Virus record (IMG/VR): IMGVR_UViG_3300036770_008729
Coordinates: 31,359-95,358 of that record
Direction: 5' to 3' (one strand)
DNA: 64,000 bases
DNA from: a virus
A program made the position numbers and the translations under genes. Shown here piece by piece: positions 985 to 48,168 of this stretch (its first letter is position 1; the number at the start of each line of letters is the position of its first letter). A model generated the notes under the pieces. It did not search any database. It was not told the origin of the DNA and was given only the letters and a program-made list of their open reading frames with translations.

Positions 985-989
985 AACTA

Positions 990-5937: not shown

Positions 5938-5951
5938 AAAAAATAATACTT

Positions 5952-8949: not shown

Positions 8950-8969
8950 AAAAAAATAAAAATAAAAAT

Positions 8970-10558: not shown

Positions 10559-10568
10559 TATAATTAAA

Positions 10569-11063: not shown

Positions 11064-11069
11064 TTAAAT

Positions 11070-11804: not shown

Positions 11805-11815
11805 ATTAATAATAA

Positions 11816-13845: not shown

Positions 13846-13855
13846 TATAAGAAAT

Positions 13856-14620: not shown

Positions 14621-14624
14621 TTAT

Positions 14625-14981
14625 ATGAATATCAGACCTAAAACAATATTTATTGACATAGATGGTACATTAATTTCACATTCTGGTTCATTAATTGGTC
14701 AAATGAAAAAACCTGAGCTTTTACCCGGTACTTTAGAAAAATTATTGGAATGGGATAGAAATGGATACAATATAATTTTGACAACCGGTAGAAGAGAAAG
14801 TATGAGAAAAAAAACAAAAAAACAGTTAAGTAAATTGGGTATTTTCTATGATAAATTAATAATGGGTATTGGTGGTGGAACTCGAATAATAATTAATGAT
14901 AGAAAGCCAAACAGTACGGATGATACCTGTTTTGCTATAAATATTGATAGAAATCAAGGCATAGAAAATATAGAAATTTAA
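14625..14981 (+). CDS. HAD-like hydrolase (small)
   Basis: IFIDIDGTLISH contains the DxDGT motif. Confidence 0.45.
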   Translation: MNIRPKTIFIDIDGTLISHSGSLIGQMKKPELLPGTLEKLLEWDRNGYNIILTTGRRESMRKKTKKQLSKLGIFYDKLIMGIGGGTRIIINDRKPNSTDDTCFAINIDRNQGIENIEI

Positions 14982-14982
14982 T

Positions 14983-15336
14983 ATGGAAAATAAAATCACA
15001 AAAATAGAAAAACCTTGGGGTTGGGAAAAATGGATAGAAGTGAATGAACACTATGTAGTGAAGGAACTTTTTATGAAAAGTGGCAATTGTTGTAGTCTTC
15101 AGTATCATGAAAAAAAACACGAAACATTTTATGTTGTAAGTGGAAGAATGAAGTTTTATGTTGGGGAAAAAATAGAAAATTTAAATGAGTTCATTTTAGA
15201 ACCTGGTCAAAATTATGTCATTAAACCATTTATAATCCATAGAATGGAGGCGGTAGATGATTGTATTTATATTGAATGTTCAACAAATTTTCTTGATGAT
15301 GTTATAAGATTAGAAGATAAATATGGTAGAAAATAA
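14983..15336 (+). CDS. cupin-domain protein (sugar isomerase/epimerase-like)
   Basis: 117 aa. KPWGWEKW ... HRMEA fits a cupin_2 pattern. Confidence 0.4.
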   Translation: MENKITKIEKPWGWEKWIEVNEHYVVKELFMKSGNCCSLQYHEKKHETFYVVSGRMKFYVGEKIENLNEFILEPGQNYVIKPFIIHRMEAVDDCIYIECSTNFLDDVIRLEDKYGRK

Positions 15337-16882
15337 CTATAAAGTAATAATTACAACTAGTGGTATAGGTAGTCGATTAGGAGAACTTACAAATTATACT
15401 AATAAAAGTCTAATTAGAATAGGTAAAAAACCTGCTATTTCTTATATAGTTGAAAATTATTCAAATGAAATTGAAATTGTAGTTACACTTGGATATTTTG
15501 GAAGTCATGTGAAGCAGTTTCTAACTATGACTTATCCTGAAAAAAAATTCACTTTCGTTGAAATAGATAAATATTCTGGTGAGGGTTCTAGTCTTGCTTA
15601 CTCTTTGTTACAAACAAAAGAAATTGTTCAATGTCCTTTTATATTTCACGCTTCCGATACTTTAGTATTTGAAAAAATAAACAAACCAAATATGAATTGG
15701 TTGGGTTTTACTTATAAAGAGGATTCATCTCAATATAGAACTTTAGAGTTAAATAGCAATTTGAAAATTTATGATAAGGGAGATTTAAACTCTAATGCAA
15801 TTTATATAGGTCTTGCTGGTATAAATGATTATGAATTATTCTGGTCTTATTTAGAAGAAGAATATAATAAAAATCCATCAGATGCCAGTTTAAGTGACTG
15901 TCATTCTATTTCAAAAATGATTGATAATAGTTGGAAAACATTTGAATTTAAAACTTGGCAAGATATTGGTAATGTTACTTCCTTAAAAAATGCTAGAAAA
16001 CATATACAGGATAAATTTGAGATTTTAGATAAAAACGATGAATCAATATTTTTATTTGATGATTTTGTAATAAAATTCTTTCACGATAATAATACTTGTA
16101 TCAATAGAGCTAAAAGAGGATATAAATTATCTGGACTTGTTCCTAAAATTTTAGACAGTAGTGATAATTTTTACAAGTATGAATACTGCAAAGGAGACTT
16201 ATTTTCCTCAGTAGTAAATGAGAGTAACTTTGAAGAATTCTTAGATTGGTCTATTACTAATCTTTGGAAAGAAAAAAATTATTCGGAAAAATTCAAAGAT
16301 AGTTGTTATGAATTTTATTTTGATAAAACTGTAAAAAGAATAAGTAAATTTCTTAAAGATAATAATCTCAAAGATGAAGAAACTATGATAAATGGTATCT
16401 TGATTCCTCCGGTTTTTGAAATGATTGAAAAAATAAATAAGTCAGATATCTGCAATTCTATACCTTATCAATTTCATGGCGATTATATACTTGATAATAT
16501 CATTAAAACTACAAATGGATTCAAACTGATTGACTGGAGACAAGATTTTGGAGGGGATTTAGATAACGGAGACATCTATTATGATTTAGCAAAATTAAAT
16601 CATAATTTATTGTTCAATCATGAAATAGTTAACAATGGTCATTTCTATGTAAAAAAAAATGAAAAAGAAGTTATTTGTGATATTTTAAGAAGTGACAATT
16701 TAACAAATTGTCGAGAAATACTACATAATTTTATAAATAAAAATAATTTTGACTTAACAAAAGTTAAAATACTAACTTCGTTGATTTGGCTCAATATGTC
16801 ACCTTTACATGATACAAAAATTGGAAACTTTTTATTTTATTTTGGTAAATTAAATTTATATAAAATTATTCATAAAATATGA
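15323..16882 (+). CDS. bifunctional sugar nucleotidyltransferase and APH/choline-kinase-like kinase
   Basis: N-terminal VIITTSGIGSRLGELTNYTNKSLIRIGKKP matches GxGxRLxPxTxxxPKxL. C-terminal QFHGDYILDN (HGDxxxxN catalytic loop) and LIDWRQDFGG match the aminoglycoside/choline kinase fold. Confidence 0.6.
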   Translation: MVENNYKVIITTSGIGSRLGELTNYTNKSLIRIGKKPAISYIVENYSNEIEIVVTLGYFGSHVKQFLTMTYPEKKFTFVEIDKYSGEGSSLAYSLLQTKEIVQCPFIFHASDTLVFEKINKPNMNWLGFTYKEDSSQYRTLELNSNLKIYDKGDLNSNAIYIGLAGINDYELFWSYLEEEYNKNPSDASLSDCHSISKMIDNSWKTFEFKTWQDIGNVTSLKNARKHIQDKFEILDKNDESIFLFDDFVIKFFHDNNTCINRAKRGYKLSGLVPKILDSSDNFYKYEYCKGDLFSSVVNESNFEEFLDWSITNLWKEKNYSEKFKDSCYEFYFDKTVKRISKFLKDNNLKDEETMINGILIPPVFEMIEKINKSDICNSIPYQFHGDYILDNIIKTTNGFKLIDWRQDFGGDLDNGDIYYDLAKLNHNLLFNHEIVNNGHFYVKKNEKEVICDILRSDNLTNCREILHNFINKNNFDLTKVKILTSLIWLNMSPLHDTKIGNFLFYFGKLNLYKIIHKI

Positions 16883-17880
16883 AAGATATAAAATTTTATA
16901 TAGGTCCAATGAGTAAAAACATTGTTGATTCGGTTATTGAATATTCAATAAACAATAATATCAATATTGGACTTATACCGTCTAGAAGACAGATTGATAA
17001 AAATGGTGGATATGTAAATAATTGGACGACTAAAGAATTCTCCTTTTATGTCAAAAATAAATCAAAAAATATTCTACTGGTAAGAGACCATTGTGGACCA
17101 AATCAAGGACAAATTGAAGATGATGGAGTTGATTCATTTATCGAAGATTGTTCATACTTTGATGTTATACATATTGATGTTTGGAAAAAATATCCAACCT
17201 ATGAAGAAGGTTTATCGAAAACAATAGATTTTATAAATCTTGGTTATAAATTAAATTCAAATTTATACTATGAAATTGGAACAGAAGAGGCTATACGAAA
17301 GTTTGAGTCTTTTGAACTTGATAACCTTGTAAGTGATCTTAATAAAAATCTATCAAATGAGTTATTTTCTCGAATAAAATTTTTAGTTATTCAATCAGGA
17401 ACAGCTCTTAAAGAAAATACCAACATCGGTATATATGACAAAGAAAGACTAACCAAAATGCTAAAAATTTGCAAAAAGTATAATCTTATTTCAAAAGAGC
17501 ATAACGGTGACTATATATCTAATGATATATTAAAAGAGAAATTCATTTTAGGTTTAAATTCAATAAACATAGCACCTGAGTTTGGTCAAATTGAAACCAA
17601 TGTTTTACTCGAGGAAATCAATTCACTTAATAGAAACGATTTATTAGATGATTTTTTTCAAATATGTCTTAAATCTAATAAATGGAAAAAATGGGTATCA
17701 AATGATTTCGATCCTTTAAACAATAAATTGGAACTTATAAATATTTGTGGACATTATGTTTTTTCATCTGAGGAGTTTTTGATTATCAAACATCAACTTT
17801 CAAAAGACATTGATGATAAAATAAAAATTTCTATAAAACGAAGAATTGAAGAATTACAATTTTATACGTCAAAAAAATAA
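16879..17880 (+). CDS. hypothetical protein
   Basis: ORF coupled by ATGA overlap. No motif recognised. Confidence 0.3.
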   Translation: MKDIKFYIGPMSKNIVDSVIEYSINNNINIGLIPSRRQIDKNGGYVNNWTTKEFSFYVKNKSKNILLVRDHCGPNQGQIEDDGVDSFIEDCSYFDVIHIDVWKKYPTYEEGLSKTIDFINLGYKLNSNLYYEIGTEEAIRKFESFELDNLVSDLNKNLSNELFSRIKFLVIQSGTALKENTNIGIYDKERLTKMLKICKKYNLISKEHNGDYISNDILKEKFILGLNSINIAPEFGQIETNVLLEEINSLNRNDLLDDFFQICLKSNKWKKWVSNDFDPLNNKLELINICGHYVFSSEEFLIIKHQLSKDIDDKIKISIKRRIEELQFYTSKK

Positions 17881-17888
17881 ATTTAATA

Positions 17889-18788
17889 ATGAAAAATAAT
17901 ATAACTTTTTTCGGAGCAAGTATAACTCAACAAGGTGGTGGATATGTCCATCATTTTTCAAATTTAAATCCACAATTCAAAATTAGTGTTTTTGGTTATG
18001 GATCAATGCATCTAAAAGATGCTGGTGTTTGTCATATTGACACTGTTTTGACATCTGATCCAGAATGGTGTTTTATAGATTGGTTCAGTACTGCTTATGT
18101 TGATGAGGCCAAAGATGATTTTGATGGAATTACACTTTATATAGATACCATACTTCATAAATTCTATTCACGTGGTATCAAACTTGTTTTTCTTACACTA
18201 CCAGAAACAGTAAGAGATAAAACATTAATACATCAACGGTTAAATTATTATCTAGAATCAAAGGGGGTTCCAACAATTGATATATCTAAATCTTTTGAGT
18301 CAAACATAAATCAGATATTAAGAGATGGAATACACTCAACTCCTTATGGTTCTGAGCAATATGCTAAATTAATTTCTGATAAATTCTTTAACGAAATATA
18401 CAACAAGCATGAGATTCCATCTGAATTTCCGAGTGTTACAAAATATTGTGATATTAAGAGTACTCAATTAAATGTAATTGTAAATAAAAACATTACGTTT
18501 ACTGGTAAGGGAGAAGTGATAGGAATTTCACAAATGTTAGGGCCATACACTGGACTTTTAAAGATTAATAATCAATTAGTTAATAATTGGGACAGATGGT
18601 GTTATTTCGAAAGAGAAATGGTAAATCTTAAATTTGAAATAGATGGTGTAACAACCATAGAGATTTTACAAGATCCGGTAGATACTTCAAGTTGTGAATA
18701 TAGTTGTAATTGGAATGTTCCAAAATTGTTAAAACTTAAGACTTTATACTATACTGGTAATATTGAAAATATCAATTTTGATAGGTAA
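17889..18788 (+). CDS. hypothetical protein, possible SGNH-like hydrolase
   Basis: ITFFGASITQQGG is weakly GDSL-like. Last gene of the plus-strand island. Confidence 0.25.
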   Translation: MKNNITFFGASITQQGGGYVHHFSNLNPQFKISVFGYGSMHLKDAGVCHIDTVLTSDPEWCFIDWFSTAYVDEAKDDFDGITLYIDTILHKFYSRGIKLVFLTLPETVRDKTLIHQRLNYYLESKGVPTIDISKSFESNINQILRDGIHSTPYGSEQYAKLISDKFFNEIYNKHEIPSEFPSVTKYCDIKSTQLNVIVNKNITFTGKGEVIGISQMLGPYTGLLKINNQLVNNWDRWCYFEREMVNLKFEIDGVTTIEILQDPVDTSSCEYSCNWNVPKLLKLKTLYYTGNIENINFDR

Positions 18789-23853: not shown

Positions 23854-23961
23854 AAGATTTGATATTTGTTATATAGTTACTAATCAATAAAGTTTAATAA
23901 AATGTTAATTGTTTTTACTGAAAAAGTTACTAATAAATATATATCAAAAATTAAATTTGTT

Positions 23962-24924
23962 ATGGCTAAAAAATTTAAAATATTATCAATCGATGGTGGT
24001 GGTCTTAGAGGTATTGTTCCACTTCTTATTCTTAGAGAAATCGAAAATAAAACAGGTAAAAGAATTCACGAATTGTTTGACCTTATTACAGGAACATCTA
24101 CTGGTGGCATTATTGCATGTGGTTTATCTTGCACAAAAGATGGCAAATCACCAGCAATTACTGTAGAAAAATTAATTGAACTCTACACTGCTGAAAGAGA
24201 AACAATTTTTCCATATAAAAGAAACTTCTTTCAAAAAATAGGCAGCGGTATTAATTCTTTATTTAATCCTAAGTTTTCACCAGATGGACTTGATCGTTTA
24301 TTAACTGAATATTTTGATGATATGAGATTAAGTAATACATTAGTTCCAATTATTGTTACTTCTTATGATATCAAAAATAATGAAGTTGTAATGTTTAAAA
24401 GTAGAAGAAGTGGTGAGATTGGATATAACGCACTACTTAAAGATGCTTGTAGATCAACATCTGCTGCTCCTACATACTTACCTTCCTATAAATTGGCTTT
24501 TGGTGGAAAACAAAGAGTTCTTATTGATGGTGGTGTTTATATTAATAACCCTGCTCTTGGATCGGTATCTGATGCTTTAAGAAGCACTAAAGGATTAAAG
24601 ATTTCCGATATAGAAGTTCTTTCACTTGGAACTGGAACTTATCCAGCTGAGTTAGGGAAAAAAGATACTCCATCTTGGGGTTTAGTAAATTGGGCACAAC
24701 CGATAACAAATATAATGATGCAAGCCACTTCTAATGCGACTGAGTATGAATGTAATGAGTTACTGAAAAAACATTTAAGAATACAATTAAAAATAGATGA
24801 TCCTAAAATGACCGATATGTCAGATTCAAGACCTGGAACAGCTCAGTATATCATTGATAAAGTGGGTTCAGATATAATAAATAATAGTGAGATAATGAAA
24901 AAATTAGATGACTTTCTTAAATAA
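23962..24924 (+). CDS. patatin-like phospholipase
   Basis: LSIDGGGLRG oxyanion motif, GTSTGG (GxSxG nucleophile elbow), and LIDGGVYINNP (catalytic Asp DGG). Start at the internal ATG at 23962. Confidence 0.75.
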   Translation: MAKKFKILSIDGGGLRGIVPLLILREIENKTGKRIHELFDLITGTSTGGIIACGLSCTKDGKSPAITVEKLIELYTAERETIFPYKRNFFQKIGSGINSLFNPKFSPDGLDRLLTEYFDDMRLSNTLVPIIVTSYDIKNNEVVMFKSRRSGEIGYNALLKDACRSTSAAPTYLPSYKLAFGGKQRVLIDGGVYINNPALGSVSDALRSTKGLKISDIEVLSLGTGTYPAELGKKDTPSWGLVNWAQPITNIMMQATSNATEYECNELLKKHLRIQLKIDDPKMTDMSDSRPGTAQYIIDKVGSDIINNSEIMKKLDDFLK

Positions 24925-25675
24925 GATAGCTTGTAATTTCTTTAGTTATATCATTATTAGAATTGATTAAGTTTTTGTAAGTTTTATCATCTACCTTTAC
25001 AAAGATTGGATTAAATCCAATATAAGTAATCACTTCATTGCCAAATGGCAGTTCTCCTTCAATGTAATCTTCTAACCAAAATTCTTTATATGGTCTCCAA
25101 CCAGTAGCTTTATAGATTCTTATTAAAGAATCTATAACTATTTGTTTATTTTCTATAGAGAAGTTTCCACAATTAATGTTGATATAAGGAACCGCTGGTA
25201 TTTTCCCATTTTCTATATTATCGACAAAAAGTTGCAATGTTGGTTTATGTGGCAATTTATTTAATTTACTTAAGTAAATAGCTTCCTCAACCTCGTTAAA
25301 ATCAACTTCTTCTTCTATAATTTTTTTTGAATTTAATTCGTCGGGTCTTAGAAATATACTACCATATGTTTCATCATATATCAATTCACATTTTTTATTT
25401 TGCCAATCATCTGGATTAACTGACATTTCGTATGATATAGCACTTCTAATCTCTCTTTTATATGTGTGTAGAATTTCATATTTTGGATATATAAAGTATC
25501 CTGAAGAAATAAAATTTGCCTTACTTATTATATTATCATCTGATAAATCAAAAAGTAACTCTTGAAAATCTCTAAAATCAGGAAACTGACTTTTAGTTAT
25601 GGCAAAATCGGCTAAATGTCTAGTATCAGAATTATTAATTTGTTCAAATAGTTTATATGGCCTAATATGCTTCAT
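24917..25675 (-). CDS. CTS-motif family protein (putative capsid-packaged internal protein)
   Basis: N-terminus MKHIRPYKLFE|Q. Last gene of the minus-strand array. Confidence 0.5.
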   Translation of the reverse strand: MKHIRPYKLFEQINNSDTRHLADFAITKSQFPDFRDFQELLFDLSDDNIISKANFISSGYFIYPKYEILHTYKREIRSAISYEMSVNPDDWQNKKCELIYDETYGSIFLRPDELNSKKIIEEEVDFNEVEEAIYLSKLNKLPHKPTLQLFVDNIENGKIPAVPYININCGNFSIENKQIVIDSLIRIYKATGWRPYKEFWLEDYIEGELPFGNEVITYIGFNPIFVKVDDKTYKNLINSNNDITKEITSYLI

Positions 25676-26556
25676 TAATAGTTGAGTAATATTTTTATTG
25701 TATAATCATAAATATCTGTATTTGTGAATTGTCTAGTTCCCCTAGCGTGGTCAAAAATAACATCACTATAATCTAAAGTAGTGAGTATAGATGGTAAAAC
25801 TTTATCAAATTGACTTTCTAATTCTATTAAGTTCATCTTTCCTTTCATATAATTATCACCTTGACCAATTTCTATTACTATACAAGGTACATTCATTTCA
25901 ATAATCTTATCTATTGAGTAACTTCTCTTCTTATCAATATCTGAATTATGAATAACTGAATATTTACCATTTGATGTTTCAAAAGAATCACCTGATTTAA
26001 ATCCATAGTTATCAATATTAAAGTTAGCACATTGCCATTTTGGTTCTGTGACATAATAACTTTCATCACTTTGCCTCATTAAAACTGAAGGATATGAACC
26101 AATGTAAAATGTTGGAAAAGCAATATCTTTTATAATATGAATCATAGCTCTGAAATAATCTTTCTCATCTCTATTTCTAACTGTTAGAATTCCATTATAT
26201 TTATATTGAATTTCTTTGTTATAATTATCTGAATCTCCATAAGCGATACAAGTTGATACCCATTTAGATTTTTCATGTGGTAAATTATCAAATACATCCA
26301 TAAGTAATCTATCTTCTACATAATAAACATCTACTTTATTTAGAGCCGTGAATATTCTATCTACATGATTTTTTATCTTATTATAGTAACCATCCCCAAT
26401 AAAATGATTTGTCCATTTTTCTAAATCTTTAATTGGTTTTCTACCCCACTCAAAATCTTTAAGATCTTCAATCCAATCATGAATTCCGTATTTAGAATCT
26501 AATCCAATATTCATATTTTCATTTATAAAGTGATTATATTTCTTAATTATTTTCAT
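25675..26556 (-). CDS. CTS-motif family protein
   Basis: N-terminus MKIIKKYNHFINE|N. Shares a coordinate with the neighbouring gene at 25675. Confidence 0.5.
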   Translation of the reverse strand: MKIIKKYNHFINENMNIGLDSKYGIHDWIEDLKDFEWGRKPIKDLEKWTNHFIGDGYYNKIKNHVDRIFTALNKVDVYYVEDRLLMDVFDNLPHEKSKWVSTCIAYGDSDNYNKEIQYKYNGILTVRNRDEKDYFRAMIHIIKDIAFPTFYIGSYPSVLMRQSDESYYVTEPKWQCANFNIDNYGFKSGDSFETSNGKYSVIHNSDIDKKRSYSIDKIIEMNVPCIVIEIGQGDNYMKGKMNLIELESQFDKVLPSILTTLDYSDVIFDHARGTRQFTNTDIYDYTIKILLNY

Positions 26557-26833
26557 AGATTTTATTTATTAAAATTGCTAAATTAATATCTTTTTCTGTA
26601 ACAATATCACCAGAATCATGCGTTGAAAGAGTTACAATAACTTTGTCAAACATCCATTCAATTTTTGGATGATGATTTTGTGATTCTGATTCTGTTGCCA
26701 CTTGATTAATAAATTGTCTCGCTGATTCAAATGAATCAAAAGTAAACTCACTGGTTAATTTTTTACCATCATTTTTCCAACTTTTTAAATCTTCAGTTGA
26801 TTCATATATTCTATAAGATTTTAGGTGCTTCAC
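26543..26833 (-). CDS. CTS-motif protein with pterin-4a-carbinolamine dehydratase/DCoH fold
   Basis: N-terminus MKHLKSYRIYE|S. SQNHHPKIEWMFDKVIVTLSTHD...EKDINLAILINKI closely parallels PCD/DCoH ([20 protein letters not shown]...ERDINLASFIEQV). Confidence 0.55.
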   Translation of the reverse strand: MKHLKSYRIYESTEDLKSWKNDGKKLTSEFTFDSFESARQFINQVATESESQNHHPKIEWMFDKVIVTLSTHDSGDIVTEKDINLAILINKIYENN

Positions 26834-27273
26834 TTTCTAAAAATTATTTTAATGGATTGGTTTTCTGCCATCCATTGACCAACTTCTAAATCTTCAAGTT
26901 CTATTTTCTCTACATTATCTTCTGATGGATCTGAACTGTATTCATCTTGTAAAAGTATTGTATATTTCCAATCTTTCATAAACTCAATAGACCTTCTAAT
27001 ACAATCCATTAATTCTGTAGATATTTGAACTTCTCTATAATCTGATACGTATTCTTCATCATCATCAAATCCAGGATCGAAATCTCTATGATATGGTTCT
27101 TCATCTCCAAATGAAATATAAACTGTGTAGTAATTAGATATATCATCACCATCTGCCCAAGCAATCCACTCTTCATCAGGATGACTATGTTTAACATCTA
27201 AAAAGATGTCTTCTAAATCAGCTTTGATTCTATCAAAGTTCTCGAATAACTTATATGTTTTTAAATGTTTCAT
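26830..27273 (-). CDS. CTS-motif family protein, highly acidic
   Basis: N-terminus MKHLKTYKLFE|N. Rich in D/E (DFDPGFDDDEEYVSDY). Confidence 0.5.
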   Translation of the reverse strand: MKHLKTYKLFENFDRIKADLEDIFLDVKHSHPDEEWIAWADGDDISNYYTVYISFGDEEPYHRDFDPGFDDDEEYVSDYREVQISTELMDCIRRSIEFMKDWKYTILLQDEYSSDPSEDNVEKIELEDLEVGQWMAENQSIKIIFRK

Positions 27274-27521
27274 TTCTCTTCTCTTCTCTTCTTCATTAAA
27301 TCTTTAATAAATTCTTTTATCTCATCATTGCAATCTGGAGTAGGTAAGAAGCCATATCCTCTCATTCTTGATGACCATTTGATCTGACCAATAACCTGAC
27401 CATCTTTACTAACATTATAAGTATCGGTTTTAGCACCTTTCTTTTTAGTTTGTAAAGTGAACTTTAATTTAGAAACTTCTTTTTTAGTTTCAAATAATTT
27501 ATATGTCTTTAAATGTATCAT
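27270..27521 (-). CDS. CTS-motif family protein, small and basic
   Basis: N-terminus MIHLKTYKLFE|T. Body is K/R-rich and 83 aa. First gene of a 5-gene overlapping operon. Confidence 0.45.
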   Translation of the reverse strand: MIHLKTYKLFETKKEVSKLKFTLQTKKKGAKTDTYNVSKDGQVIGQIKWSSRMRGYGFLPTPDCNDEIKEFIKDLMKKRREEK

Positions 27522-27548
27522 TTGAAAAGTTTTAGATGTTTCATAAAG

Positions 27549-27559
27549 TATATATTAAA
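27549..27559 (-). promoter_or_regulatory. TTTAATATATA box (candidate phage promoter element)
   Basis: Minus strand reads TTTAATATATA about 28 nt upstream of the 27521 start. Confidence 0.3.
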
Positions 27560-27568
27560 TACACAAAA

Positions 27569-28102
27569 TTAAATACTTAATTCAACCTTTTCTCCAGATG
27601 GGGGTGAGAAAGAAACACTTTTCAAGTTATTAAACTTATATTTATCGTCTAAATTTATATAATTTTTACCAGTACCTTTATTTACATAGCAAATTGTTAT
27701 GTGTGGTTTGTAATCGGGATAAGATTCTTCATTCGGTAGTGTTTTTAACATATCATGTAGCTTCTGTAAATCAGGAGTTTTCTTAACATTAAACTTAACT
27801 ACATCATAATCTTTATTCTCGAATAAATCTATACCTTCAATTTCTATGTTTAGTGGTTTTGCAAATGAGGTCAAAATCTCTTGAACTTGTTCTGATGTTA
27901 CTTCTGGTTTTAATCCATATAATAAAGTCAAATGTGGAAAATCTTCTATACCCTGATTTTCCTCTGGATTATAAATATCTTCTTTTTTTATTTTAGAAGT
28001 TATTTCATCCCAATTTGTGAAAGGAATCTTTAACATCGCACAACCAAATTCGTGCTGACCTGATGATTCTTTAATAAACTGTATATAACTTTTTATCCTC
28101 AT
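27569..28102 (-). CDS. CTS-motif 2H phosphoesterase (LigT/2',3'-cyclic phosphodiesterase-like)
   Basis: Start set at the internal Met, MRIKSYIQFIKE|S, as an ATGA overlap with the upstream gene. Two H-x-T-x motifs (FPHLTLLYGL and KPHITICYV) about 85 aa apart. Confidence 0.55.
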   Translation of the reverse strand: MRIKSYIQFIKESSGQHEFGCAMLKIPFTNWDEITSKIKKEDIYNPEENQGIEDFPHLTLLYGLKPEVTSEQVQEILTSFAKPLNIEIEGIDLFENKDYDVVKFNVKKTPDLQKLHDMLKTLPNEESYPDYKPHITICYVNKGTGKNYINLDDKYKFNNLKSVSFSPPSGEKVELSI

Positions 28103-28638
28103 ACTGCTCCTTGTATTATTATTCTCCACTCACCACCTTTATTATTATAAGAAAATTTAAAATAAACTCCTATTTCAGATTGTATTCTTTTTACTGCTAC
28201 TAAAAAGTCATCAAATTCCTGTGTAATCTTTTTTCTTCTTTTATCTTGTTCGGCCATTTCTAACTCAGCCTCTTTTTTAGTCATTACATCTATCGATGGA
28301 TTATCTTCAAATTCCATTTCTTGAGAGTCCCAAGTTATTTCACCATCTGATGATATTCTACCAGTCATATCTACAAATTCTGTTCTTGCTCCTGATGTGA
28401 TATAAACATCTTCCTTTGGCATCATTCTACAATTAAAATTAGGAAATCCCCAAATAGAAATTGACATATCATCACCAGACCAATCGGTTCTATTTTCAAT
28501 CCAACTCCATCCATTATCTTCAAATTCTATGAAACATTCTTTAATTGTATCCAATACCTGCTGATACACTTTACGCATGTGAATTGCATATGGATGAGTT
28601 TCTTCAGTATTTTCATTAAATCTTTTTAAATGTTTCAT
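28099..28638 (-). CDS. CTS-motif family protein
   Basis: N-terminus MKHLKRFNE. Confidence 0.5.
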   Translation of the reverse strand: MKHLKRFNENTEETHPYAIHMRKVYQQVLDTIKECFIEFEDNGWSWIENRTDWSGDDMSISIWGFPNFNCRMMPKEDVYITSGARTEFVDMTGRISSDGEITWDSQEMEFEDNPSIDVMTKKEAELEMAEQDKRRKKITQEFDDFLVAVKRIQSEIGVYFKFSYNNKGGEWRIIIQGAV

Positions 28639-28654
28639 TTCATATATTTATTAA

Positions 28655-29575
28655 TTATTCTAATCCTAATTCTTGGAGTATTTCATGCAATTTATCTATT
28701 TTTATCATTATTGCTTCATCCTCAAACCATGATTCTAAACCTTCACCTTCATATTCAAAATCATCATCTAAATCAGCATATAATTTCATTGTTGAGATTA
28801 CATCACCTAATTTAAATTTATTGAATACAGGGTCTAGTATCTTATTAAGATTTCCTAAAAGTGAAAGACTATTATCCCACAATCTTCCAAAGTATTTTGT
28901 TTTGATAGCATCACTAACTTTACAGGTATCTAGATAAGTTTTTAATTTATTCCAATCAGGATTTACATAAGTTTTAGTCCAGTTTGGAGTTAGCTGGTTT
29001 CCAAGTTTATCAAATCTATCTATACGAGTTTCTATATGAGCGTAATCTCTTAAAACTCCTAAGTCACTTAATAAAGAAGATGTATATCGAAAGAGAGAAG
29101 GTCTTCTCATATCTTCTTCTCTAAATGCGGCTTTATTTGGTATTTTACCAAAACAATTCCAGAAATCACCTCTATCACCAGTGGCGACTTTTGTTGTATC
29201 AAAAGGAATGACTACATAATCGACAGATTTACCTTTTACAAATCCTGCACCATGTGTGAAAGCTCTTCTTGAAGAAGCGCAACATAAACCTTTATTTCTT
29301 CTCGGCCAACCTTTCCACGAGTCTAAGTTGGAAGTAAGTGTATTATGAACATCGTTTGATGAGTATGGGTCTATTCTAAGAGATGTTGATGACTTTGGAT
29401 CTACTAAAACAAAATCACCTCTATTTTCATCTTTTCTTAAAATAAGAACATCATCAGTATAATCATCACCCCAAGATAAAAACTTTTTGCAATTTTGTTG
29501 CAATATTTTTACTACTTCTTCTTTAGTGAGAATAGTTGATTTTAAAGTTTCATTAAATCTTCTTAAATGTTTCAT
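28655..29575 (-). CDS. CTS-motif family protein
   Basis: N-terminus MKHLRRFNE. Confidence 0.5.
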   Translation of the reverse strand: MKHLRRFNETLKSTILTKEEVVKILQQNCKKFLSWGDDYTDDVLILRKDENRGDFVLVDPKSSTSLRIDPYSSNDVHNTLTSNLDSWKGWPRRNKGLCCASSRRAFTHGAGFVKGKSVDYVVIPFDTTKVATGDRGDFWNCFGKIPNKAAFREEDMRRPSLFRYTSSLLSDLGVLRDYAHIETRIDRFDKLGNQLTPNWTKTYVNPDWNKLKTYLDTCKVSDAIKTKYFGRLWDNSLSLLGNLNKILDPVFNKFKLGDVISTMKLYADLDDDFEYEGEGLESWFEDEAIMIKIDKLHEILQELGLE

Positions 29576-30273
29576 TTTAGGTATTTATCAAAAACTTCTT
29601 CAATTTTTGGTTCTAATTTTGTATAATCTATATCAAATGTTTTGGGCATAATAGATACTATCTCATCTATGTTATATGGCTCTTTTCCAATAGTATACCA
29701 ACTTCTATTCTTTTTCATCCATAGATAAAAAAGAATATAAGCATTTGATTTTTGAATATATTCTTCAGTGTCAATTATTTTATCTAATGACCATTTCTTA
29801 ATTTTTTCAACAGTTCTTTTTTCACAATCAACTTCTATATCAATAGATGTTCTTATTTCCTCGGCAATTACATTTAGATCAACATCCTCTTTTCCAGCCA
29901 ACCATTCATCAGTTTGAACTAATCCTATATTATTAGTCCAAGTAGGATCGTTTTCTAAAAACTGATCCATGTGAGATGATTCGTGTAATAATATAAGAAG
30001 CCAATAAGATATATCTTTTCCCATAGCACAAGCTAGAAGTCTATTATCTCCATCAAAATAACCATTACAAAATATATTTGGTCCTCCTAAAGAAACACCT
30101 TTTTCAGGTGATAGAAAAAGCTTAATGTTATTTTCTTTGGCAAAGTTTTTTAAGTGGTCAATAAATAATTTAACTTTTTCAATCTCTTCTTTTGTTAATT
30201 TACCAAAGTTAAACTCACCACCGTGTGGATTATCTATTTCCTGAAAGTCTTCAAATAATTTTAAGTATCTCAT
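29572..30273 (-). CDS. CTS-motif protein with HEXXH zinc-metallopeptidase-like motif
   Basis: N-terminus MRYLKLFEDFQE. LLILLHESSHMDQ contains HExxH. Confidence 0.5.
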   Translation of the reverse strand: MRYLKLFEDFQEIDNPHGGEFNFGKLTKEEIEKVKLFIDHLKNFAKENNIKLFLSPEKGVSLGGPNIFCNGYFDGDNRLLACAMGKDISYWLLILLHESSHMDQFLENDPTWTNNIGLVQTDEWLAGKEDVDLNVIAEEIRTSIDIEVDCEKRTVEKIKKWSLDKIIDTEEYIQKSNAYILFYLWMKKNRSWYTIGKEPYNIDEIVSIMPKTFDIDYTKLEPKIEEVFDKYLK

Positions 30274-30279: not shown

Positions 30280-30290
30280 TATATATTAAA
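30280..30290 (-). promoter_or_regulatory. TTTAATATATA box
   Basis: Minus strand reads TTTTAATATATAGC about 7-17 nt upstream of the 30273 start, immediately after the methyltransferase terminator. Confidence 0.3.
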
Positions 30291-33895: not shown

Positions 33896-34342
33896 TTAGA
33901 ACTCATCATCATCTATTATAGTTGGATCATATGGATGAAAATCTCTTCTTTTCTTATAGTTAATTGTAGGTTTTTTCTCAATAAAATCTTCTATTTTATC
34001 ATACAACCTTAAACACTCATCATCTATATCTTTTAATTGTAATTCTTTACCATTGTAACTGATAGTTCTGTTGTTATCATCAAGTGTAACATTTCCATCC
34101 ATTAGATATATGATGTAAACACCGGGTTCGATTTCTACTACACCTTTTACAACTTTTATACCATCTTGAAGGCGAGCGGATTGAATAGAGTGATTGTCAA
34201 TCATTCTGTGAATTTTTTCTAATGTATCTCTGTCCTCTTTTTTATCGATGTTCAAAACTCTACGAGTTCCTCTTACAAGTCTTTGCATTAAAGGTTCCTT
34301 TTTAGGCTCTTCAAATTCTTCGAATAATTTTATATACTTCAT
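33896..34342 (-). CDS. CTS-motif family protein
   Basis: N-terminus MKYIKLFEEFEE. TATATATTAA box lies 5-14 nt upstream, plus strand 34347-34356. Confidence 0.5.
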   Translation of the reverse strand: MKYIKLFEEFEEPKKEPLMQRLVRGTRRVLNIDKKEDRDTLEKIHRMIDNHSIQSARLQDGIKVVKGVVEIEPGVYIIYLMDGNVTLDDNNRTISYNGKELQLKDIDDECLRLYDKIEDFIEKKPTINYKKRRDFHPYDPTIIDDDEF

Positions 34343-34382
34343 ATATTATATATTAATTTTTTTTTATATATTTGTAATTGAA

Positions 34383-34911: not shown

Positions 34912-37900
34912 TCAATTTATTTTGTTAACAATTTTGTTTATAACCTTAATATATTCTAAATCTATAATCTTTATTAGGTAAATTCCAGTCTTAGATTCTC
35001 CTAAATCTTGTTTTATTTTAGTAATACCTTGACTAACACTTTGCTTTTTTTGACTTATAAGTTTACCACTAATATCATAAACTTCTATCATAAGCTGTGT
35101 TTGATTTTTAGTAATATATTCTACAACAAACTCATTTTGTGTTGGATTAGGATATACTTTTGCATCCACTTCATCTAATTTAATTTGTGAAGTCTTAACA
35201 ATCAAACTATCATTATTAGGATTTGCTTGTCTTTGTGTTATACAACCAGCTTGTATTACTAAAGTTCTCCAAGTACTAGTTCCACAATTAGTTACTGATC
35301 GAACTGATAAAGTTCCTCCATTGAATCCCGATGAGAATGTAACATCGATTATTCTACTAATGGAAGAACCAGTAGTTCCATTTGGTAACATCCATTGATA
35401 ACTTGTTGCGCCATTTACTGCTACAATACTGTAAGTGGATGTTGCTCCTATGTTACCACATGTTGGTCCTGAGATTGCTCCGGGCACTGGTGGTGTTTTA
35501 CTTATTGATAATGTTCTTGCTGTACTTCTAACACCACAAGCGTTTTGTGCTTGAACTTGTATAGTACCTCCAGTAAATTGTGGACTAAACTGTACTAATA
35601 CATTTCTAGTACCTTGACCTTGAACTATTGTGGCGTTGGATGGTGCTGTCCAAAAATATGAAGTCGCTCCTGATACTGTACTGCTTGAATACAATACATT
35701 ACTTGATGTTTGATCTACATTAGTATAAGCAGAACAAACATTTGTTGTACCTGTAATTCTAGTTGGTGTTGCAGGTGCATTAGTACCCGAACTTGTGACA
35801 GTTAAGGTACTTGGTGATCCAGTACCACAACTATTGATTGATGCCACTGTTATGTTCCCACTTACAAATGAACTTGTAATAGTGACTTGGATAGTATTAG
35901 TACCTTGACCATTGTTTAATGTAATACCATTTGGTACTGTCCAAGAATAACCAATAGTGGCGTCATACATTGGTGATATTGAGTATGAAGTAGTTGTAGC
36001 ACAAGTACTTGTTGGACCACTAATCGGACCTGGTATTCCAGGTAAAGAGTTGATTGTGATAGTAGATGAAGCTGATGATATACAATTGCCTGTTGATGCA
36101 GTGTATGTCATTGTACTTGTATTTTTAGCATAAACTGTATTTCTAATATCACCAGTATAAGATTGTGTTGCTGTTGGATTTATATATAATCCAGTTAATG
36201 GTGACCAGGTTACCATTGTTGGAGCATATATACCAAACTTCATGTTTGGACGATACTTACTACTTATAAGATTGTTTGCTTCATTAAGTGGTTCACAAAC
36301 TGAAAAGTCATTATCATAACCTCCATAAACTGAGTTAAATGAAGTTTGACTAAACTCTACTGCTGAGTTTGTACCAGTACAGTTGCTACAAGAATTGTTT
36401 ACATCATTGTCGTGACAGATCTCTATTACAATATTGTAAAGTGGATTCCATGTAAATGATTGATTAAAAGAATATACTTTCCATCCAACTGTAGGTGCTT
36501 GTTCTTGTCCAGTAGTGTAAACAGTTACAAAAGGACCTACGGTAACACTTAAAAGACTACCACTTTCTGTAATATAACCATAAGATAAGTTGTCATTTAT
36601 GGTGTGAGCTATTTTAATTGTAAAGTTATTTTGGTAACCAGTACCTTGTGATAGTACTTTTAATGCTAATGAATTTATATCACCAGCAACTAAACCAAGT
36701 GCAAGTAATTCTGATGATCTAATTAGATATTGCACTCTTGAACCTTCATAGCTACTTGTATAAGGTGTAATACCTGATTGACCAGTAAGAGTTGTATTGA
36801 CTCCTAATTGACGACTGAATGTAGCTGATCCTCCTGTTGCTGTTAATGTTGTAATTGAATTACTACAAGCAGTTGTTATTGAAGGTGTAACTGATAAAGC
36901 AGATGGTGTTGGGTTTATTTGTATGTCTACAGATGAAGAAGAACTACAACCATCTAAAGTCGATGTTAAAGTATATGTTCCTTCATTATTGTATGTAGCG
37001 TTATTAATAGTTGGTGACTGTTGTGATGATGTATAGTTATTTGGTCCAACCCAACTAAATGTATTACCAATATCAGAACTTCCAATTAAACTTATAGTTG
37101 AATTTTGACATACAGAACTATTGTTTGTACTAGCATCTGTTAAAGGTATAGCTTTTATAGTCACACTAACTGGTATATTTGATGAACCACATTCTGAGGT
37201 AATAGTTAGTGAGTAGTTACCAGCATCAGCATTTGTAGTATTGTCAATTAAGAGTGATGGTGTTTCAGCACTTGGATTGATTGATGGATCAATTACTATA
37301 CTATTTTTATACCATTGGTATTGCACTTGACTACCAGTTGCTACAACTGTTAAATCTATTGGATCATTAAAACAAACAGATGATATTGTTGATGGTTGTG
37401 AAACAATTTGTAAAGTAGGTATTCCAGTTATATTAATAACATCACTAACACTACAACTTCTGTAAGTTGAAGTTAAAGTATAACTATTTAATCCTACTAA
37501 AGCAGATGGTATAGTTGCATTTAAAGTACTTGCTGAAAAACTAGGACCTGTCCAACTGATTGTTGGTGCTACTGTATTTAAAGTAATGGTAATGCTCCAG
37601 TCATTAAATGTACCTATATCACCAGTATAGTCATCAGTAATACGAAGTGTCCAAACACCATCAGCACTTCCAGTTAAGTTAGAAAAAGGTTGCTCAGGTG
37701 TGTATGTTCCTGTGAATGGAGCTGTACCTGATGTTATAGCGGTACCTGAAGTAGAGAATACTGTGTTAACATAGTTGTCACCAGTACTTCCATTATCACT
37801 TGATAAATCTATTGAAGAACCATTTGGAGCAATTAAAGTTAAATCTAAGTCCGCATCAAATGGATGTGTTATGTTTAGTAATACTGAGGTTATTTGATTA

Positions 37901-39411
37901 GCATTAGCACCAGTTCCACTAACAGTAATAGTTCTGTCTATACTTGAAACATCAGGTATTAATAATGAGGATGTATTTGAACCACTAAATGATGGATTCA
38001 TATTTGGTGAAACTCCATCTAAGTTGATTTCACTACTCTGACAAATACTAAAGTCTGTTCCGGCTTCAGCAGTTGGATAAACATTGTTTATGTTGACAGC
38101 TACATCATATACAATATTACCAGGACCAGCTCCATTTGTATTAGTACTAAATTCAAACTGCGATTCTTTAATAACATCAAACGATAAACTATTACTACCA
38201 GTTGTTGTAGGAGCAGTTACTGAAAAAGTATATGTGGTAGTTGATCCAGCAGCTAAGTTGTTAGCATCTATTTTTTGATAACTTGCTTGGTCATTCCATT
38301 TAACACCTATATTATAGTCATCTCCACCTCCATCAATCCAAGAAACAGTACCAGTATTTTTAACAGTTACAGTTATCTGACGAGTTTCTCCTGCACACCA
38401 CCAAGAGTTGCCTGTATTAGAACTTATCCAAGTTGCAAGATATGGTGTAGGTGGAGGTGTCCAAGTATAAGTTAATCCTGAGGCTGGTTTAACTGTGTTT
38501 GATAATCTTACAGTAGCACTATTAGTCCCACCTGCTGTAGTACTTGACCAACTAGTTGTAGTTGTACGATTTGCAAAATCAGCATTAGAATTTCCTCTTA
38601 ATCCAATTTCAAAACCAACTGCTGTAGTGTTTGTAGGTCCAAGTATGCTGTAGACAAAATCTATCGTATTTGTTGTCTCGTTTAATCTAATTTGAAAATC
38701 ATACAATTCACCAAAACCACCATTTGTAGTATATCTTTGAAATCCAGTCCATTGAACTACTAATGTTTGATTTGGAGCAGTTCCAATTGTTTCATAACGA
38801 ATACCAAATTTTGGATTTGAAAATCTGAAATGAAAACCAGTACCTTTTGAAGTTGCTGCGGATGATATTGTAACTGTGTTTGTTCCTATAGCAGTTACAG
38901 TTGCATTGTTTGGTATACCAGATCCTGATACCTTATCACCGATAGATATTTGACTAATATCACCACTTGTTATTGTGATTGTAGTACTACCACTTGTTCT
39001 ATTTGCTAAAAAAGAACCTCTACCAATTAAGTCTCCTCCCATAGCAGATATTACGTTGTTGGAGGTTCCCAAAGATAATGGGGACATACTGTTTATTGGT
39101 AAAGTACCTAATGAAATCCAACCATTAGTACTGATACCAAACTGAGTGTAGATTGTATTGTTATAAACAAAATTAAACCCAATTGGTAGTAACGCTGATG
39201 AGACGTTATCGTCTAAAAATCCTGCTGTAGTATTTGGTAATGTTCCAGTATATACACTGTTTGTCCAATTAGTAAAGTTGTTGTAATTGGTTCCTCCTGT
39301 AATTTCAGTATATGTTCCTGATGAGGATGAAAAGGTATAATTATTTACTTGTGATAATAAGTTGAATGAAATTAGAGTAAGAAGAAGGGTTAGTAATTTT
39401 TTCATGGTCAA
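34912..39411 (-). CDS. giant secreted multi-domain protein with T9SS C-terminal sorting domain and a proprotein-convertase P-domain
   Basis: N-terminal signal peptide MTMKKLLTLLLTLISFNLLSQ. Ser/Thr-rich Ig/PKD-like repeats. The P-domain-like block is HPFDADLDLTLIAPNGSSIDL...GVWTLRITDDYTGDIGTFNDWSITI. The C-terminus KVYPNPTQNEFVVEY...GIYLIKI is typical of Bacteroidota Por/T9SS CTDs. Confidence 0.75.
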   Translation of the reverse strand: MTMKKLLTLLLTLISFNLLSQVNNYTFSSSSGTYTEITGGTNYNNFTNWTNSVYTGTLPNTTAGFLDDNVSSALLPIGFNFVYNNTIYTQFGISTNGWISLGTLPINSMSPLSLGTSNNVISAMGGDLIGRGSFLANRTSGSTTITITSGDISQISIGDKVSGSGIPNNATVTAIGTNTVTISSAATSKGTGFHFRFSNPKFGIRYETIGTAPNQTLVVQWTGFQRYTTNGGFGELYDFQIRLNETTNTIDFVYSILGPTNTTAVGFEIGLRGNSNADFANRTTTTSWSSTTAGGTNSATVRLSNTVKPASGLTYTWTPPPTPYLATWISSNTGNSWWCAGETRQITVTVKNTGTVSWIDGGGDDYNIGVKWNDQASYQKIDANNLAAGSTTTYTFSVTAPTTTGSNSLSFDVIKESQFEFSTNTNGAGPGNIVYDVAVNINNVYPTAEAGTDFSICQSSEINLDGVSPNMNPSFSGSNTSSLLIPDVSSIDRTITVSGTGANANQITSVLLNITHPFDADLDLTLIAPNGSSIDLSSDNGSTGDNYVNTVFSTSGTAITSGTAPFTGTYTPEQPFSNLTGSADGVWTLRITDDYTGDIGTFNDWSITITLNTVAPTISWTGPSFSASTLNATIPSALVGLNSYTLTSTYRSCSVSDVINITGIPTLQIVSQPSTISSVCFNDPIDLTVVATGSQVQYQWYKNSIVIDPSINPSAETPSLLIDNTTNADAGNYSLTITSECGSSNIPVSVTIKAIPLTDASTNNSSVCQNSTISLIGSSDIGNTFSWVGPNNYTSSQQSPTINNATYNNEGTYTLTSTLDGCSSSSSVDIQINPTPSALSVTPSITTACSNSITTLTATGGSATFSRQLGVNTTLTGQSGITPYTSSYEGSRVQYLIRSSELLALGLVAGDINSLALKVLSQGTGYQNNFTIKIAHTINDNLSYGYITESGSLLSVTVGPFVTVYTTGQEQAPTVGWKVYSFNQSFTWNPLYNIVIEICHDNDVNNSCSNCTGTNSAVEFSQTSFNSVYGGYDNDFSVCEPLNEANNLISSKYRPNMKFGIYAPTMVTWSPLTGLYINPTATQSYTGDIRNTVYAKNTSTMTYTASTGNCISSASSTITINSLPGIPGPISGPTSTCATTTSYSISPMYDATIGYSWTVPNGITLNNGQGTNTIQVTITSSFVSGNITVASINSCGTGSPSTLTVTSSGTNAPATPTRITGTTNVCSAYTNVDQTSSNVLYSSSTVSGATSYFWTAPSNATIVQGQGTRNVLVQFSPQFTGGTIQVQAQNACGVRSTARTLSISKTPPVPGAISGPTCGNIGATSTYSIVAVNGATSYQWMLPNGTTGSSISRIIDVTFSSGFNGGTLSVRSVTNCGTSTWRTLVIQAGCITQRQANPNNDSLIVKTSQIKLDEVDAKVYPNPTQNEFVVEYITKNQTQLMIEVYDISGKLISQKKQSVSQGITKIKQDLGESKTGIYLIKIIDLEYIKVINKIVNKIN

Positions 39412-40727: not shown

Positions 40728-40863
40728 TAGCCATAGCCATACCGGTCCCAAAAGGGGCATACTAGCCCACCGGTTAAAATTATATATTAAAAATTAAACT
40801 TCCGTAAAAATAAAAAGTAAAAAGAAAAGAAAGGCAAATAAATGTTTAACTTAAAACCAAACA

Positions 40864-43378: not shown

Positions 43379-43423
43379 AAAAATATTTATATTTTAGGTA
43401 TATATTAAAAAACTTTTAGACAA

Positions 43424-48158: not shown

Positions 48159-48168
48159 TATATATTAA
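48159..48168 (-). promoter_or_regulatory. TTAATATATA box
   Basis: Minus strand reads TTTATTAATATATAAAAA directly upstream of the 48153 start. Confidence 0.3.

Follow-up and report, generated by a model that had tools for sequence, protein, structure and literature searches.

Does a very large phage send a ready-made enzyme into its host together with its DNA, and what would that enzyme act on? The question is raised by a gene in a 64,000-nucleotide stretch of viral DNA (positions 31,359 to 95,358 of IMG/VR record IMGVR_UViG_3300036770_008729), hereafter called the window, in which coordinates without a prefix are counted. The gene occupies 27569-28102 on the minus strand and encodes, from an ATG start, a 2H phosphoesterase of 177 residues, including an N-terminal leader, MRIKSYIQFIKE, that resembles the capsid-targeting sequence (CTS) of phage T4. 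A first-pass annotation had described the product as a pre-packaged phosphodiesterase for cyclic nucleotides or RNA ends. Taken as a whole, the evidence points tentatively to a catalytically competent 2H precursor with a 12-residue T4-type capsid-targeting propeptide, which would heal RNA ends together with the RNA ligase Rnl1. The parts of this proposal differ in strength.

A 2H phosphoesterase with a separable leader

The superfamily assignment is secure, and it is nearly certain that the gene product is an active 2H enzyme. The assignment, for which the first-pass annotation had relied on two HxT motifs and a length of about 175 residues, is fully supported by a match to PF13563 (48.9 bits, cutoff 27; E 9.2e-13) and by the invariance of H57, T59, H134, and T136 across an alignment of 31 relatives (47-84% identity). 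Weaker Pfam matches are to Acb1, AKAP7, LigT, 2H-SAK, and CPDase, and the PHROG match is phrog_755. The first catalytic motif, H57-L-T59-L (residues 57-60; 27923-27934, minus strand), aligns with the first HxT of PDB 2fyh/1vdx. The second, H134-I-T136-I (residues 134-137; 27692-27703, minus strand), lies inside YPDYKPHITICY, a region that aligns both with YPDYRPHITLSY and FDDYTPHITLSY of Acb1 proteins and with AHITLG of LigT-type enzymes. The motifs are 77 residues apart rather than the roughly 85 first estimated, and in the family profile both line up with the catalytic motifs of the archaeal LigT-type structures (2fyh/1vdx). The AlphaFold model (predicted local distance difference test, pLDDT, 85.8) has two alpha+beta lobes and a central cleft onto which the HxT strands face, and its domain begins at about F19. 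Six aromatic residues are invariant in the family (W31, Y44, F94, Y131, Y165, F175).

A homology search returned 169 relatives, many of them on contigs of 190-656 kb, and the exact protein was found on Logan contigs too, one of them of 0.2-1 Mb. Homologue counts given below refer to the best 120 of the 169. These sequences bear on where the protein starts, as the mechanical list of open reading frames (ORFs) opens a longer version at a GTG at 28129. The ATG at 28102 is favored because it overlaps the stop of the preceding gene (ATGA), follows an AAGGAG Shine-Dalgarno-like hexamer (28107-28112, minus strand) 4 nt upstream, and is the near-universal start in the family: all 115 homologues with a recognizable leader start at the M[KRI]IK.Y position. 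The homologue starts and the hexamer show that the gene had been delimited correctly at 27569-28102.

The leader comprises codons 1-12 (28067-28102, minus strand), with cleavage predicted after E12 and before S13. In the AlphaFold model residues 1-15 are disordered (pLDDT <50), and the segment is conserved in the family: E12 is invariant, K4, Y6, and F9 are each kept in at least 90%, and K.Y..F[ILVM].E is matched by 115 of the 120 homologues, with S directly after it in 105, 6-7 residues ahead of a GC[VA]M strand. Two homologues (P0080 and P0110) bear another leader subtype in exchange (MKHLKSYKLFE, MKYLKKYKLFE), and the Maribacter phage homologue, from 125-kb phages, has none, beginning directly at ...RRFGCLM. 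This swapping and loss indicate that the leader is a separable module. Since synonymous codons vary in the leaders and the upstream DNA is not conserved, selection acts on the peptide rather than the DNA, and a DNA- or translation-level element was rejected on these grounds as the main explanation. A secretion signal was rejected as well, the leader being too polar; the type IX secretion system (T9SS) relies on a C-terminal domain.

Some orthologues carry a C-terminal fusion (P0019, P0022, P0034, P0080, P0109, and that of the phage genome LR745206, L001:6001-7317). The LR745206 protein (438 aa) is joined to an RNase_T-type DEDDh exonuclease and the others to an orphan domain of about 120 aa, always through a leader-like junction, [IVL]NE[SN]. 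As the partners differ and the junction does not, the fusions look like deletions between neighboring tagged genes. The junction's resemblance to a kept cleavage site suggests a polyprotein-like cargo. The partners were rejected as a clue to function, since the orphan domain found in several genomes is unrelated to the DEDDh exonuclease of LR745206.

The leader and the capsid-targeting sequence of T4

In T4, internal proteins IPII and IPIII start with MKTYQEFIAE, cut before the following A, and IPI starts with MKTFKEFTST. The first 10 residues of IPIII are enough for head targeting, with residues 4 and 7 serving targeting and residues 8 and 10 processing (PMC9026906). The T4 protease gp21 cuts at L/I-x-E, as in ITE, LTE, and LIE (PMC5694885). 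When the 2H leader is shifted by two residues, K4-S-Y6-I-Q-F9-I10-K-E12, with S13 beyond the cut, places K, Y, F, I, and E on K2, Y4, F7, I8, and E10 of T4. MRIKSYIQFIKE followed by S thereby agrees with the T4 CTS at the mapped targeting (Y, F) and processing (I, E) residues, and the leader falls within the 10-20 residues of a propeptide that carries targeting aromatics and an L/I-x-E site. The CTS tag of the first-pass annotation is thus visible in the sequence itself, in the leader with its following S and in the disorder of residues 1-15. Because the tag so closely resembles the T4 head-loading tag, the finished enzyme probably enters the host along with the DNA.

Head genes and a probable late promoter in related phages

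Whether such a tag could work depends on the head of the phage that carries it. The window has a GC content of 29%. At the DNA level LR756502 (642 kb) is the only phage in the collection related to it, and its top protein matches are to LR745206 (635 kb) and LR756502. Genomes above 634 kb were placed in the Mahaphage clade, with Bacteroidetes hosts, by Al-Shayeb et al. (PMC7162821). By size these relatives correspond to genomes of that clade, and the window is taken to come from a huge phage of the same clade with a Bacteroidota host; a 1,499-aa window protein with a Por_Secre_tail (T9SS sorting) domain (34912-39411, minus strand) fits such a host. The relatives encode 2H proteins 45-50% identical to that of the window, and they are the source of the evidence on the head module.

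LR756502, reassembled here from 14 loci (L007-L020), matches the T4 portal protein gp20 at 222545-224260 (E 2.5e-27), has clear homologues of the gp17 terminase and of gp18, and encodes a Gp23-family major capsid protein at 227452-229167 (99.5 bits). Between its portal and major capsid protein genes lies a 699-aa ORF (225272-227371; L011:29272-31371) of gp21-type protease-scaffold character. Its N-terminus aligns with gp21 over the H and S regions; tblastn matched it to 739 phage records and, among 40 listed, the annotated ones bear names such as 'head maturation protease'. The protease domain is followed by about 12 tandem repeats of 14 residues, NI.YSEY[IL]AE[NSH]LDK, each of which presents Y-x-x-Y-I-x-E and then N, S, or H, including an I/L-x-E site, in the register of the T4 CTS and the 2H leader. 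A protease-plus-repeat protein, again placed between gp20-like portal and Gp23-family capsid genes, occurs also in LR745206, LR756501, and LR756504 (L022:6001-8124, L023:5998-8421, L024:5845-8139) and is degenerate in LR756500, and in the phage collection the repeat region is limited to six Mahaphage-group records. The I-N-E-N of the major capsid protein propeptide aligns with I-F-E-N of T4 gp23. Together these features suggest that the leader mimics the scaffold repeat to load cargo, with later cleavage at [ILFY]-x-E.

Packaging further requires that the enzyme be made when heads are. A promoter-like motif, TTAATATATA, has 7 matches in the window against 1.8 expected, all on the minus strand, a number reached in 0 of 100 shuffles (27549-27558, 30280-30289, 34347-34356, 40781-40790, 43399-43408, 48159-48168, 56831-56840). 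The copy at 30280-30289 stands 6 nt ahead of the first gene of a four-gene operon that ends with the 2H gene, and that at 27549-27558 follows the 2H stop codon, ahead of the leader gene that comes next. In all, the motif is found 4-6 nt ahead of four leader genes of the window and 20 nt ahead of a weakly gp13-like gene; its core, AATATATA, was not found ahead of the window genes for gp32, DnaK, DnaJ, adenylate kinase, Rnl1, or PrkA. In LR756502 the core stands 28-40 nt before the genes for portal, protease-scaffold, capsid, terminase, sheath, and many very large proteins, and 13-17 nt before leader genes. It resembles the T4 late promoter, TATAAATA. Given its place ahead of these structural genes of LR756502, the motif is probably a late promoter, an indirect hint that leader genes are co-expressed with head genes, as packaging needs.

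A large family of tagged genes

The 2H leader is one of many. At least 13 window ORFs begin with variants of MK[HY][LI]K.[YF]..F.E[SNT], and nine of these genes are consecutive at 24917-30273, beside the gp32 gene. All of those located below are on the minus strand. Three orphans precede the 2H gene in its operon (28099-30273): the first gene, with leader MRYLKLFEDFQE (29572-30273), a second with MKHLRRFNET (28655-29575), and a third with MKHLKRFNEN (28099-28638), the one whose stop overlaps the 2H start. Five more consecutive tagged genes follow within 24917-27521 (27270-27521, 26830-27273, 26543-26833, 25675-26556, 24917-25675). Elsewhere stand MKYIKLFEEFEE (33896-34342; motif 4 nt upstream, no family on record), MKRIKSYNQFES (47731-48153; an orphan with the motif 5 nt upstream), MIKRYQEYITES (53072-54313), and MKIIKFTEFINEG (56210-56824; motif 6 nt upstream), the last two sharing the leader subtype of the 2H enzyme. 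A known Pfam domain was found in two of the 10 tagged window ORFs scanned, the 2H enzyme and a pterin-4a-carbinolamine dehydratase with a GTG start (26543-26833; PF01329, 79 bits); the ORFs at 33896-34342, 53072-54313, and 56210-56824 are orphans as well. The dehydratase would be an odd cargo for a capsid.

In LR756502 the pattern MK[HY][LI]K.[YF]...E is carried by 108 of the 943 N-termini, compared with 4 of the 3419 Met positions inside proteins. The expression is conservative and missed many variants seen on inspection, so 108 is a lower bound (at least 11% of genes). A stricter subtype, Y..[FY][ILV].E[small], is found at 13 of the 943 N-termini and at 19 internal sites in 171,000 positions, 11 of which are the scaffold repeats themselves. 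Pfam domains occur in only about 8 of the 108 tagged proteins, leaving about 93% as orphans; the tagged proteins of known domain are enzymes, and the domains include phage lysozyme, NUDIX, SAM methyltransferase, SET, GNAT, HNH, and Toprim-like ones.

A tag this widespread need not concern the capsid. The leader of a genuine 2H enzyme might instead be a tag for DnaK/DnaJ/GrpE, another sorting or turnover signal, or a translation aid for short-leader late mRNAs, in which case the enzyme would act only after its synthesis in the infected cell. The phage does encode a complete Hsp70 system (DnaK, 51050-52915; DnaJ, 44461-45537; GrpE, 46371-46847), and peptides that are both basic and hydrophobic, KHLKTYKLF for instance, are similar to the motifs that Hsp70 binds. 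Many leader ATGs come only 4-9 nt after the end of the promoter-like motif, so that part of the mRNAs may be almost leaderless, and both the share of genes tagged and the acidity of their products fit a role outside the head. A translation aid is harder to reconcile with the synonymous codon variation, with the retention of conservative swaps (Y/F, L/I, K/R), and with the operon-internal position of many tagged genes, the 2H gene included, at overlapping stop and start codons. The leader ends with an invariant E and then a small residue, coincides with the T4 CTS at four mapped residues, and recurs about 12 times in the protease-scaffold protein, and the I-x-E-N of the capsid protein propeptide aligns with the T4 IFE-N; all of this points toward the head. 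A function unrelated to the capsid is accordingly judged unlikely.

Packaging of the 2H enzyme through its leader is considered probable, because the T4 CTS match, the at least 108 tagged genes among 943, the gp21-type protease with its repeats, and the promoter-like motif shared with structural genes converge on it. Several observations weigh against it. The tagged proteins are acidic (median isoelectric point, pI, 5.4; mature 2H enzyme 5.0), as opposed to pI 9.0-9.7 for the T4 internal proteins. At least 11% of genes are tagged, the pterin dehydratase included, which far exceeds the cargo of any studied phage. The 699-aa ORF scores 20.2 bits on Peptidase_S77, short of the 27-bit threshold. 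The window does not include the head module, protease and scaffold being seen only in relatives, and these phages are uncultured and known here from their genes alone. Of the first-pass claim of a tagged, pre-packaged enzyme, then, the tag stands, and pre-packaging gains indirect support from several independent lines, namely the T4 match, the modularity of the leader, the protease-scaffold of the relatives, and the shared motif.

Cyclic oligonucleotides as a possible substrate

The first-pass annotation stated that Acb1, the T4 enzyme against the cyclic-oligonucleotide-based antiphage signaling system (CBASS), has the 2H fold. This is confirmed: Acb1 belongs to the 2H enzymes, has the HxT/HxT tetrad, and in its pocket combines a closing C-terminal lid, the base-stacking aromatics Y12, W74, F107, and W147, and the adenine-reading E141 (PMC9117128). 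Acb1 cuts cyclic di- and trinucleotides on the 3' side of adenosine. Delivered as CTS-tagged cargo, an Acb1-like enzyme would linearize host cyclic-oligonucleotide signals (those of CBASS, type III CRISPR, and possibly other systems) as soon as infection starts. The sole PDB sequence match of the single 2H protein is Acb1 7t26. The YPDYKPHITICY of the 2H protein is nearly identical to YPDYRPHITLSY of FBB1 Acb1 and close to the T4 FDDYTPHITLSY, with Y128 (F or Y in the family) equivalent to the aromatic F107; hhalign gives T4 Acb1 a probability of 70% over 32 columns (residues 109-140), and Pfam Acb1 is recorded for most homologues. By position only, Acb1 Y12 may match F19 and W74 may match F94, and the family is rich in invariant aromatics. 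The best fold matches include a cGAMP phosphodiesterase of the 2H type from penguinpox, and injected 2H domains have been predicted to degrade defense nucleotides (PMC5512222).

The likeness is nevertheless local. The PF23474 (Acb1) match, at 28.7 against 27 bits, is borderline and places residues 88-142 on profile positions 60-113, that is, on 54 of 144 positions around the second HxT. No alignable counterpart of the Acb1 lid, W147, or E141 was found in the 2H protein, whose C-terminus reads ...YS.P.G.K.YFEI. The nearest viral models (BFVD), phage proteins annotated as cyclic phosphodiesterase (CPDase)- or LigT-like, have template modeling (TM) scores of 0.71-0.80, as against 0.41-0.52 for Acb1 models; LigT-type structures likewise score above those of Acb1, which are not the nearest structural neighbors. 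Of the structural comparison that had been proposed, the LigT side holds, with LigT/YjcG/CPDase-type folds nearest, and closeness to Acb1 does not. No contextual link to signaling defense was found. An Acb1-like enzyme is therefore possible and not favored, with the same low standing as a non-capsid leader, and an anti-CBASS assignment is not specifically supported.

In T4, acb1 (gene 57B) adjoins ipI (T4 73591-74410; L004:11592-12411). The N-terminus of T4 Acb1, MMEFKDFSTG, is similar to the IPI leader MKTFKEFTST and has no obvious I/L-x-E ahead of the essential Y12. This likeness may be a relic or chance.

Among NCBIfam models the best match is TIGR02258 (RNA 2',3'-cyclic phosphodiesterase). 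Assignment to a subfamily by sequence was tried and abandoned, since the PDB profile search, hhalign to T4 Acb1, and NCBIfam yielded clan-level or partial matches only. An injected 2H enzyme might also have some other activity, as a Usb1-like 3' RNA exonuclease or RNase, a 2'-5' oligoadenylate phosphodiesterase, or an ADP-ribose cyclic phosphate hydrolase (Appr>p, Thoeris-type). For 2H domains in fusion with MuF or portal proteins, Iyer et al. (2017) predicted injection and a role as RNases or in the degradation of nucleotide signals, and they favored an RNase or 2'-5' phosphodiesterase for virion-associated 2H domains unlinked to ligases (PMC5512222); the DEDDh exonuclease fused to the LR745206 orthologue could be read the same way. 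That fusion looks like an accident of adjacency, given the unrelated orphan domain joined to other orthologues via the same [IVL]NE[SN], and nothing was seen that singles out these substrates. Such activities are quite improbable.

Possible RNA-end healing and the Rnl1 ligase

The remaining candidate substrate is the 2',3'-cyclic-phosphate RNA end. The window encodes a possible sealing partner, an Rnl1-type RNA ligase (49414-50682, plus strand; PF09511, 55.4 bits), and the first-pass annotation had offered the 2H enzyme as its healing partner. In two relatives the ligase bears the leader subtype of the 2H enzyme: the LR756502 orthologue (L017:1690-2961) begins MKKLHRYNSFIKES-LTTQEGRH-RIPTYEEC and that of LR745206 (L026:1444-2706) begins MKLFKYIEFINEN-SKNEYS-IPSYEEA. 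The Y..FI.E subtype is rare, occurring in LR756502 at only the 13 N-termini counted above. Because Rnl1 in two relatives bears it, RNA-end healing is slightly favored over the destruction of cyclic oligonucleotides, by a small difference. If the enzyme is packaged, healing as its main role falls just short of an even chance.

Here, too, there are findings on the other side. The window ligase lacks the full leader; its start, MNIKRY-IPTYEEA, looks like the outcome of an in-frame deletion of 13 codons, and Rnl1 of LR756504 and of LR756501 is likewise without it. The 2H and Rnl1 genes are 21 kb apart in the window, and LR756501 has Rnl1 and gave no 2H match. The TIGR02258 score, 36.3 bits, is far under the equivalog cutoff of 65.7. 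The 2'-phosphate that classical 2H CPDases leave has no use in a T4-type Rnl1 pathway. A scan of 30 window ORFs, the annotated genes, and 16 LR756502 proteins that include 10 with the 2H leader subtype and the Rnl1 neighbors revealed no polynucleotide kinase, phosphatase, or Tpt1, the rest of the genome being unsearched. The earlier remark that no Pnkp is visible in the window holds for the roughly 45 ORFs with a family checked or on record, of 87 with at least 70 aa. The pairing with Rnl1 is thus upheld by the shared subtype in two relatives and weakened by distance, by the leaderless window ligase, and by the missing kinase.

One P-loop gene stands directly beside Rnl1 (48830-49417, plus strand; its stop overlaps the Rnl1 start). 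It was considered as the kinase partner and rejected, since by family it is an adenylate kinase (PF00406, 136.9 bits) and not a polynucleotide kinase. The same adjacency is seen in LR745206 (L026:639-1202). Less than 6 kb from Rnl1, LR756502 also encodes a second RNA ligase (PF09414, 96 bits) and an HD_4 hydrolase (L016:44609-45250, L016:47163-47750); neither has a counterpart at the same position in the window. The window holds no tRNA genes.

Proposed course of infection and its meaning

On the favored proposal, the 2H gene would be transcribed late, in its operon of leader genes, from a promoter-like motif shared with head and tail genes. Judging from the relatives, K-x-Y-x-x-F-I-x-E of the leader would bind the prohead core, since it imitates the 14-residue repeat ...Y-S-E-Y-I-A-E-N... 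of the protease-scaffold, and a gp21-family prohead protease would then cut after E12 at the I-x-E site, before S13. Once in the cell, the enzyme would hydrolyze a 2',3'-cyclic or related phosphodiester. The favored guess is RNA that ends in a 2',3'-cyclic phosphate after cutting by host ribonucleases, for example anticodon nucleases and toxins. The enzyme would thereby supply the healing step, and Rnl1 the sealing step, of an RNA-repair kit that does not depend on translation. A pre-made kit would be sensible if host nucleases disable translation at entry, and it would let the phage survive an attack on translation before its own protein synthesis.

More broadly, and still doubtfully, the Mahaphage-clade huge phages may have expanded T4 capsid targeting until the products of more than 100 genes (at least 11% of the total) are injected, by means of a tag that mimics the protease-scaffold repeat and with a cargo that includes a kit for RNA repair or the erasure of nucleotide signals (the 2H enzyme and, in some members, Rnl1). 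The largest known phages would then send in, along with the DNA, a big and rapidly evolving collection of enzymes and orphan proteins, and cyclic-phosphate or cyclic-nucleotide chemistry would be countered before any phage gene expression. In each genome over 100 candidate entry effectors could be picked out by a simple pattern at the N-terminus, which would change the reading of huge-phage 'dark matter'; the T4 CTS mechanism would be explained as scaffold mimicry; and a compact tag for loading proteins into capsids would be at hand. In the literature nothing was found that describes a stand-alone 2H enzyme bearing a T4-type CTS, the leader family, or the repeat scaffold; publications on Mahaphage head proteins and on packaged Acb1 were sought too, and likewise yielded nothing of the kind. 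If the leader works as a CTS, this would be the first case found of a stand-alone 2H phosphoesterase loaded into heads by a T4-type tag.

Other genes of the window

A patatin-like phospholipase gene (23902-24924, plus strand) stands beside the array of leader genes. From the ORF list only, a PrkA/YeaH/SpoVR-like trio was read at 57142-61842 (plus strand) and an 18-kb block of glycosyltransferase-like and sugar-metabolism-like ORFs at 157-18788 (plus strand).

Comparison with known systems

By family models the enzyme is closest to LigT/ThpR, YjcG, and the archaeal '2'-5' RNA ligase' (TIGR02258, PF13563, PF02834), with which both HxT motifs align. Identity to LigT-type proteins is only 12-15%, the equivalog cutoff is not reached, and, unlike them, the family has an insert (N30-W31...D42-x-Y44...G51), a glycine-rich basic loop (KGTGKxY), and the leader. 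With Acb1 (T4 gene 57B; PDB 7T26/7T27; PF23474) it shares the fold, the tetrad, a near-identical second motif, (F/Y)xDYxPHIT(L/I)xY, a phage origin, and a similar size. This likeness is limited to about 30 residues and leaves the lid, W147, and E141 unaligned, the structure is nearer to LigT/YjcG/CPDase, and T4 Acb1 is not known to be packaged, in contrast to the putative packaging here.

For RNA repair the nearest parallel is Trl1 of fungi and plants, in which a 2H-type CPD domain works with an Rnl1-family ligase domain and a P-loop kinase. Here a 2H enzyme and a PF09511 ligase occur in one genome, and their shared leader subtype in two relatives is a further point of likeness. Unlike in Trl1, the two genes are unlinked, the P-loop gene beside Rnl1 is a bona fide member of the adenylate kinase family, and neither a polynucleotide kinase nor Tpt1 was found in the proteins checked.

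The idea of a 2H domain that rides in the virion and acts at entry has a precedent in the prediction for MuF/portal 'polyvalent proteins' (PMC5512222). Their route is covalent fusion to a head protein, within large multidomain chains, as opposed to a solo 177-aa enzyme with a putative cleavable leader; the 2H protein carries no MuF or portal fusion, and in its homologues the fusions are to the DEDDh exonuclease or the orphan domain only. A further parallel is offered by the propeptide-bearing ejection proteins of the giant phages phiKZ and SPN3US, where a gp21-related protease cuts many proteins inside the head at x-x-E, as would happen here; their propeptides mostly exceed 100 residues and end in S/A/G-x-E, whereas the leaders described here have 9-13 residues and end in [ILFY]-x-E.

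The closest parallel is T4 itself. Like IPI, IPII, IPIII, and Alt, the 2H enzyme has a short N-terminal propeptide with aromatics three residues apart, then I-x-E and a small residue, although its leader is two residues longer at the N-terminus. Both lineages have a gp20/gp21/gp23-type head module, seen in this one in the relatives, both keep clustered, fast-varying cargo genes, and Alt is an example of an enzyme as CTS cargo, even if a 2H phosphoesterase is not known among the T4 cargo. The tagged genes of this lineage number more than 100, compared with a handful in T4, and their products are mostly acidic where those of T4 are basic. Unlike in T4, the protease of these phages, as read from their genes alone, is fused to a scaffold of tandem CTS-like repeats.

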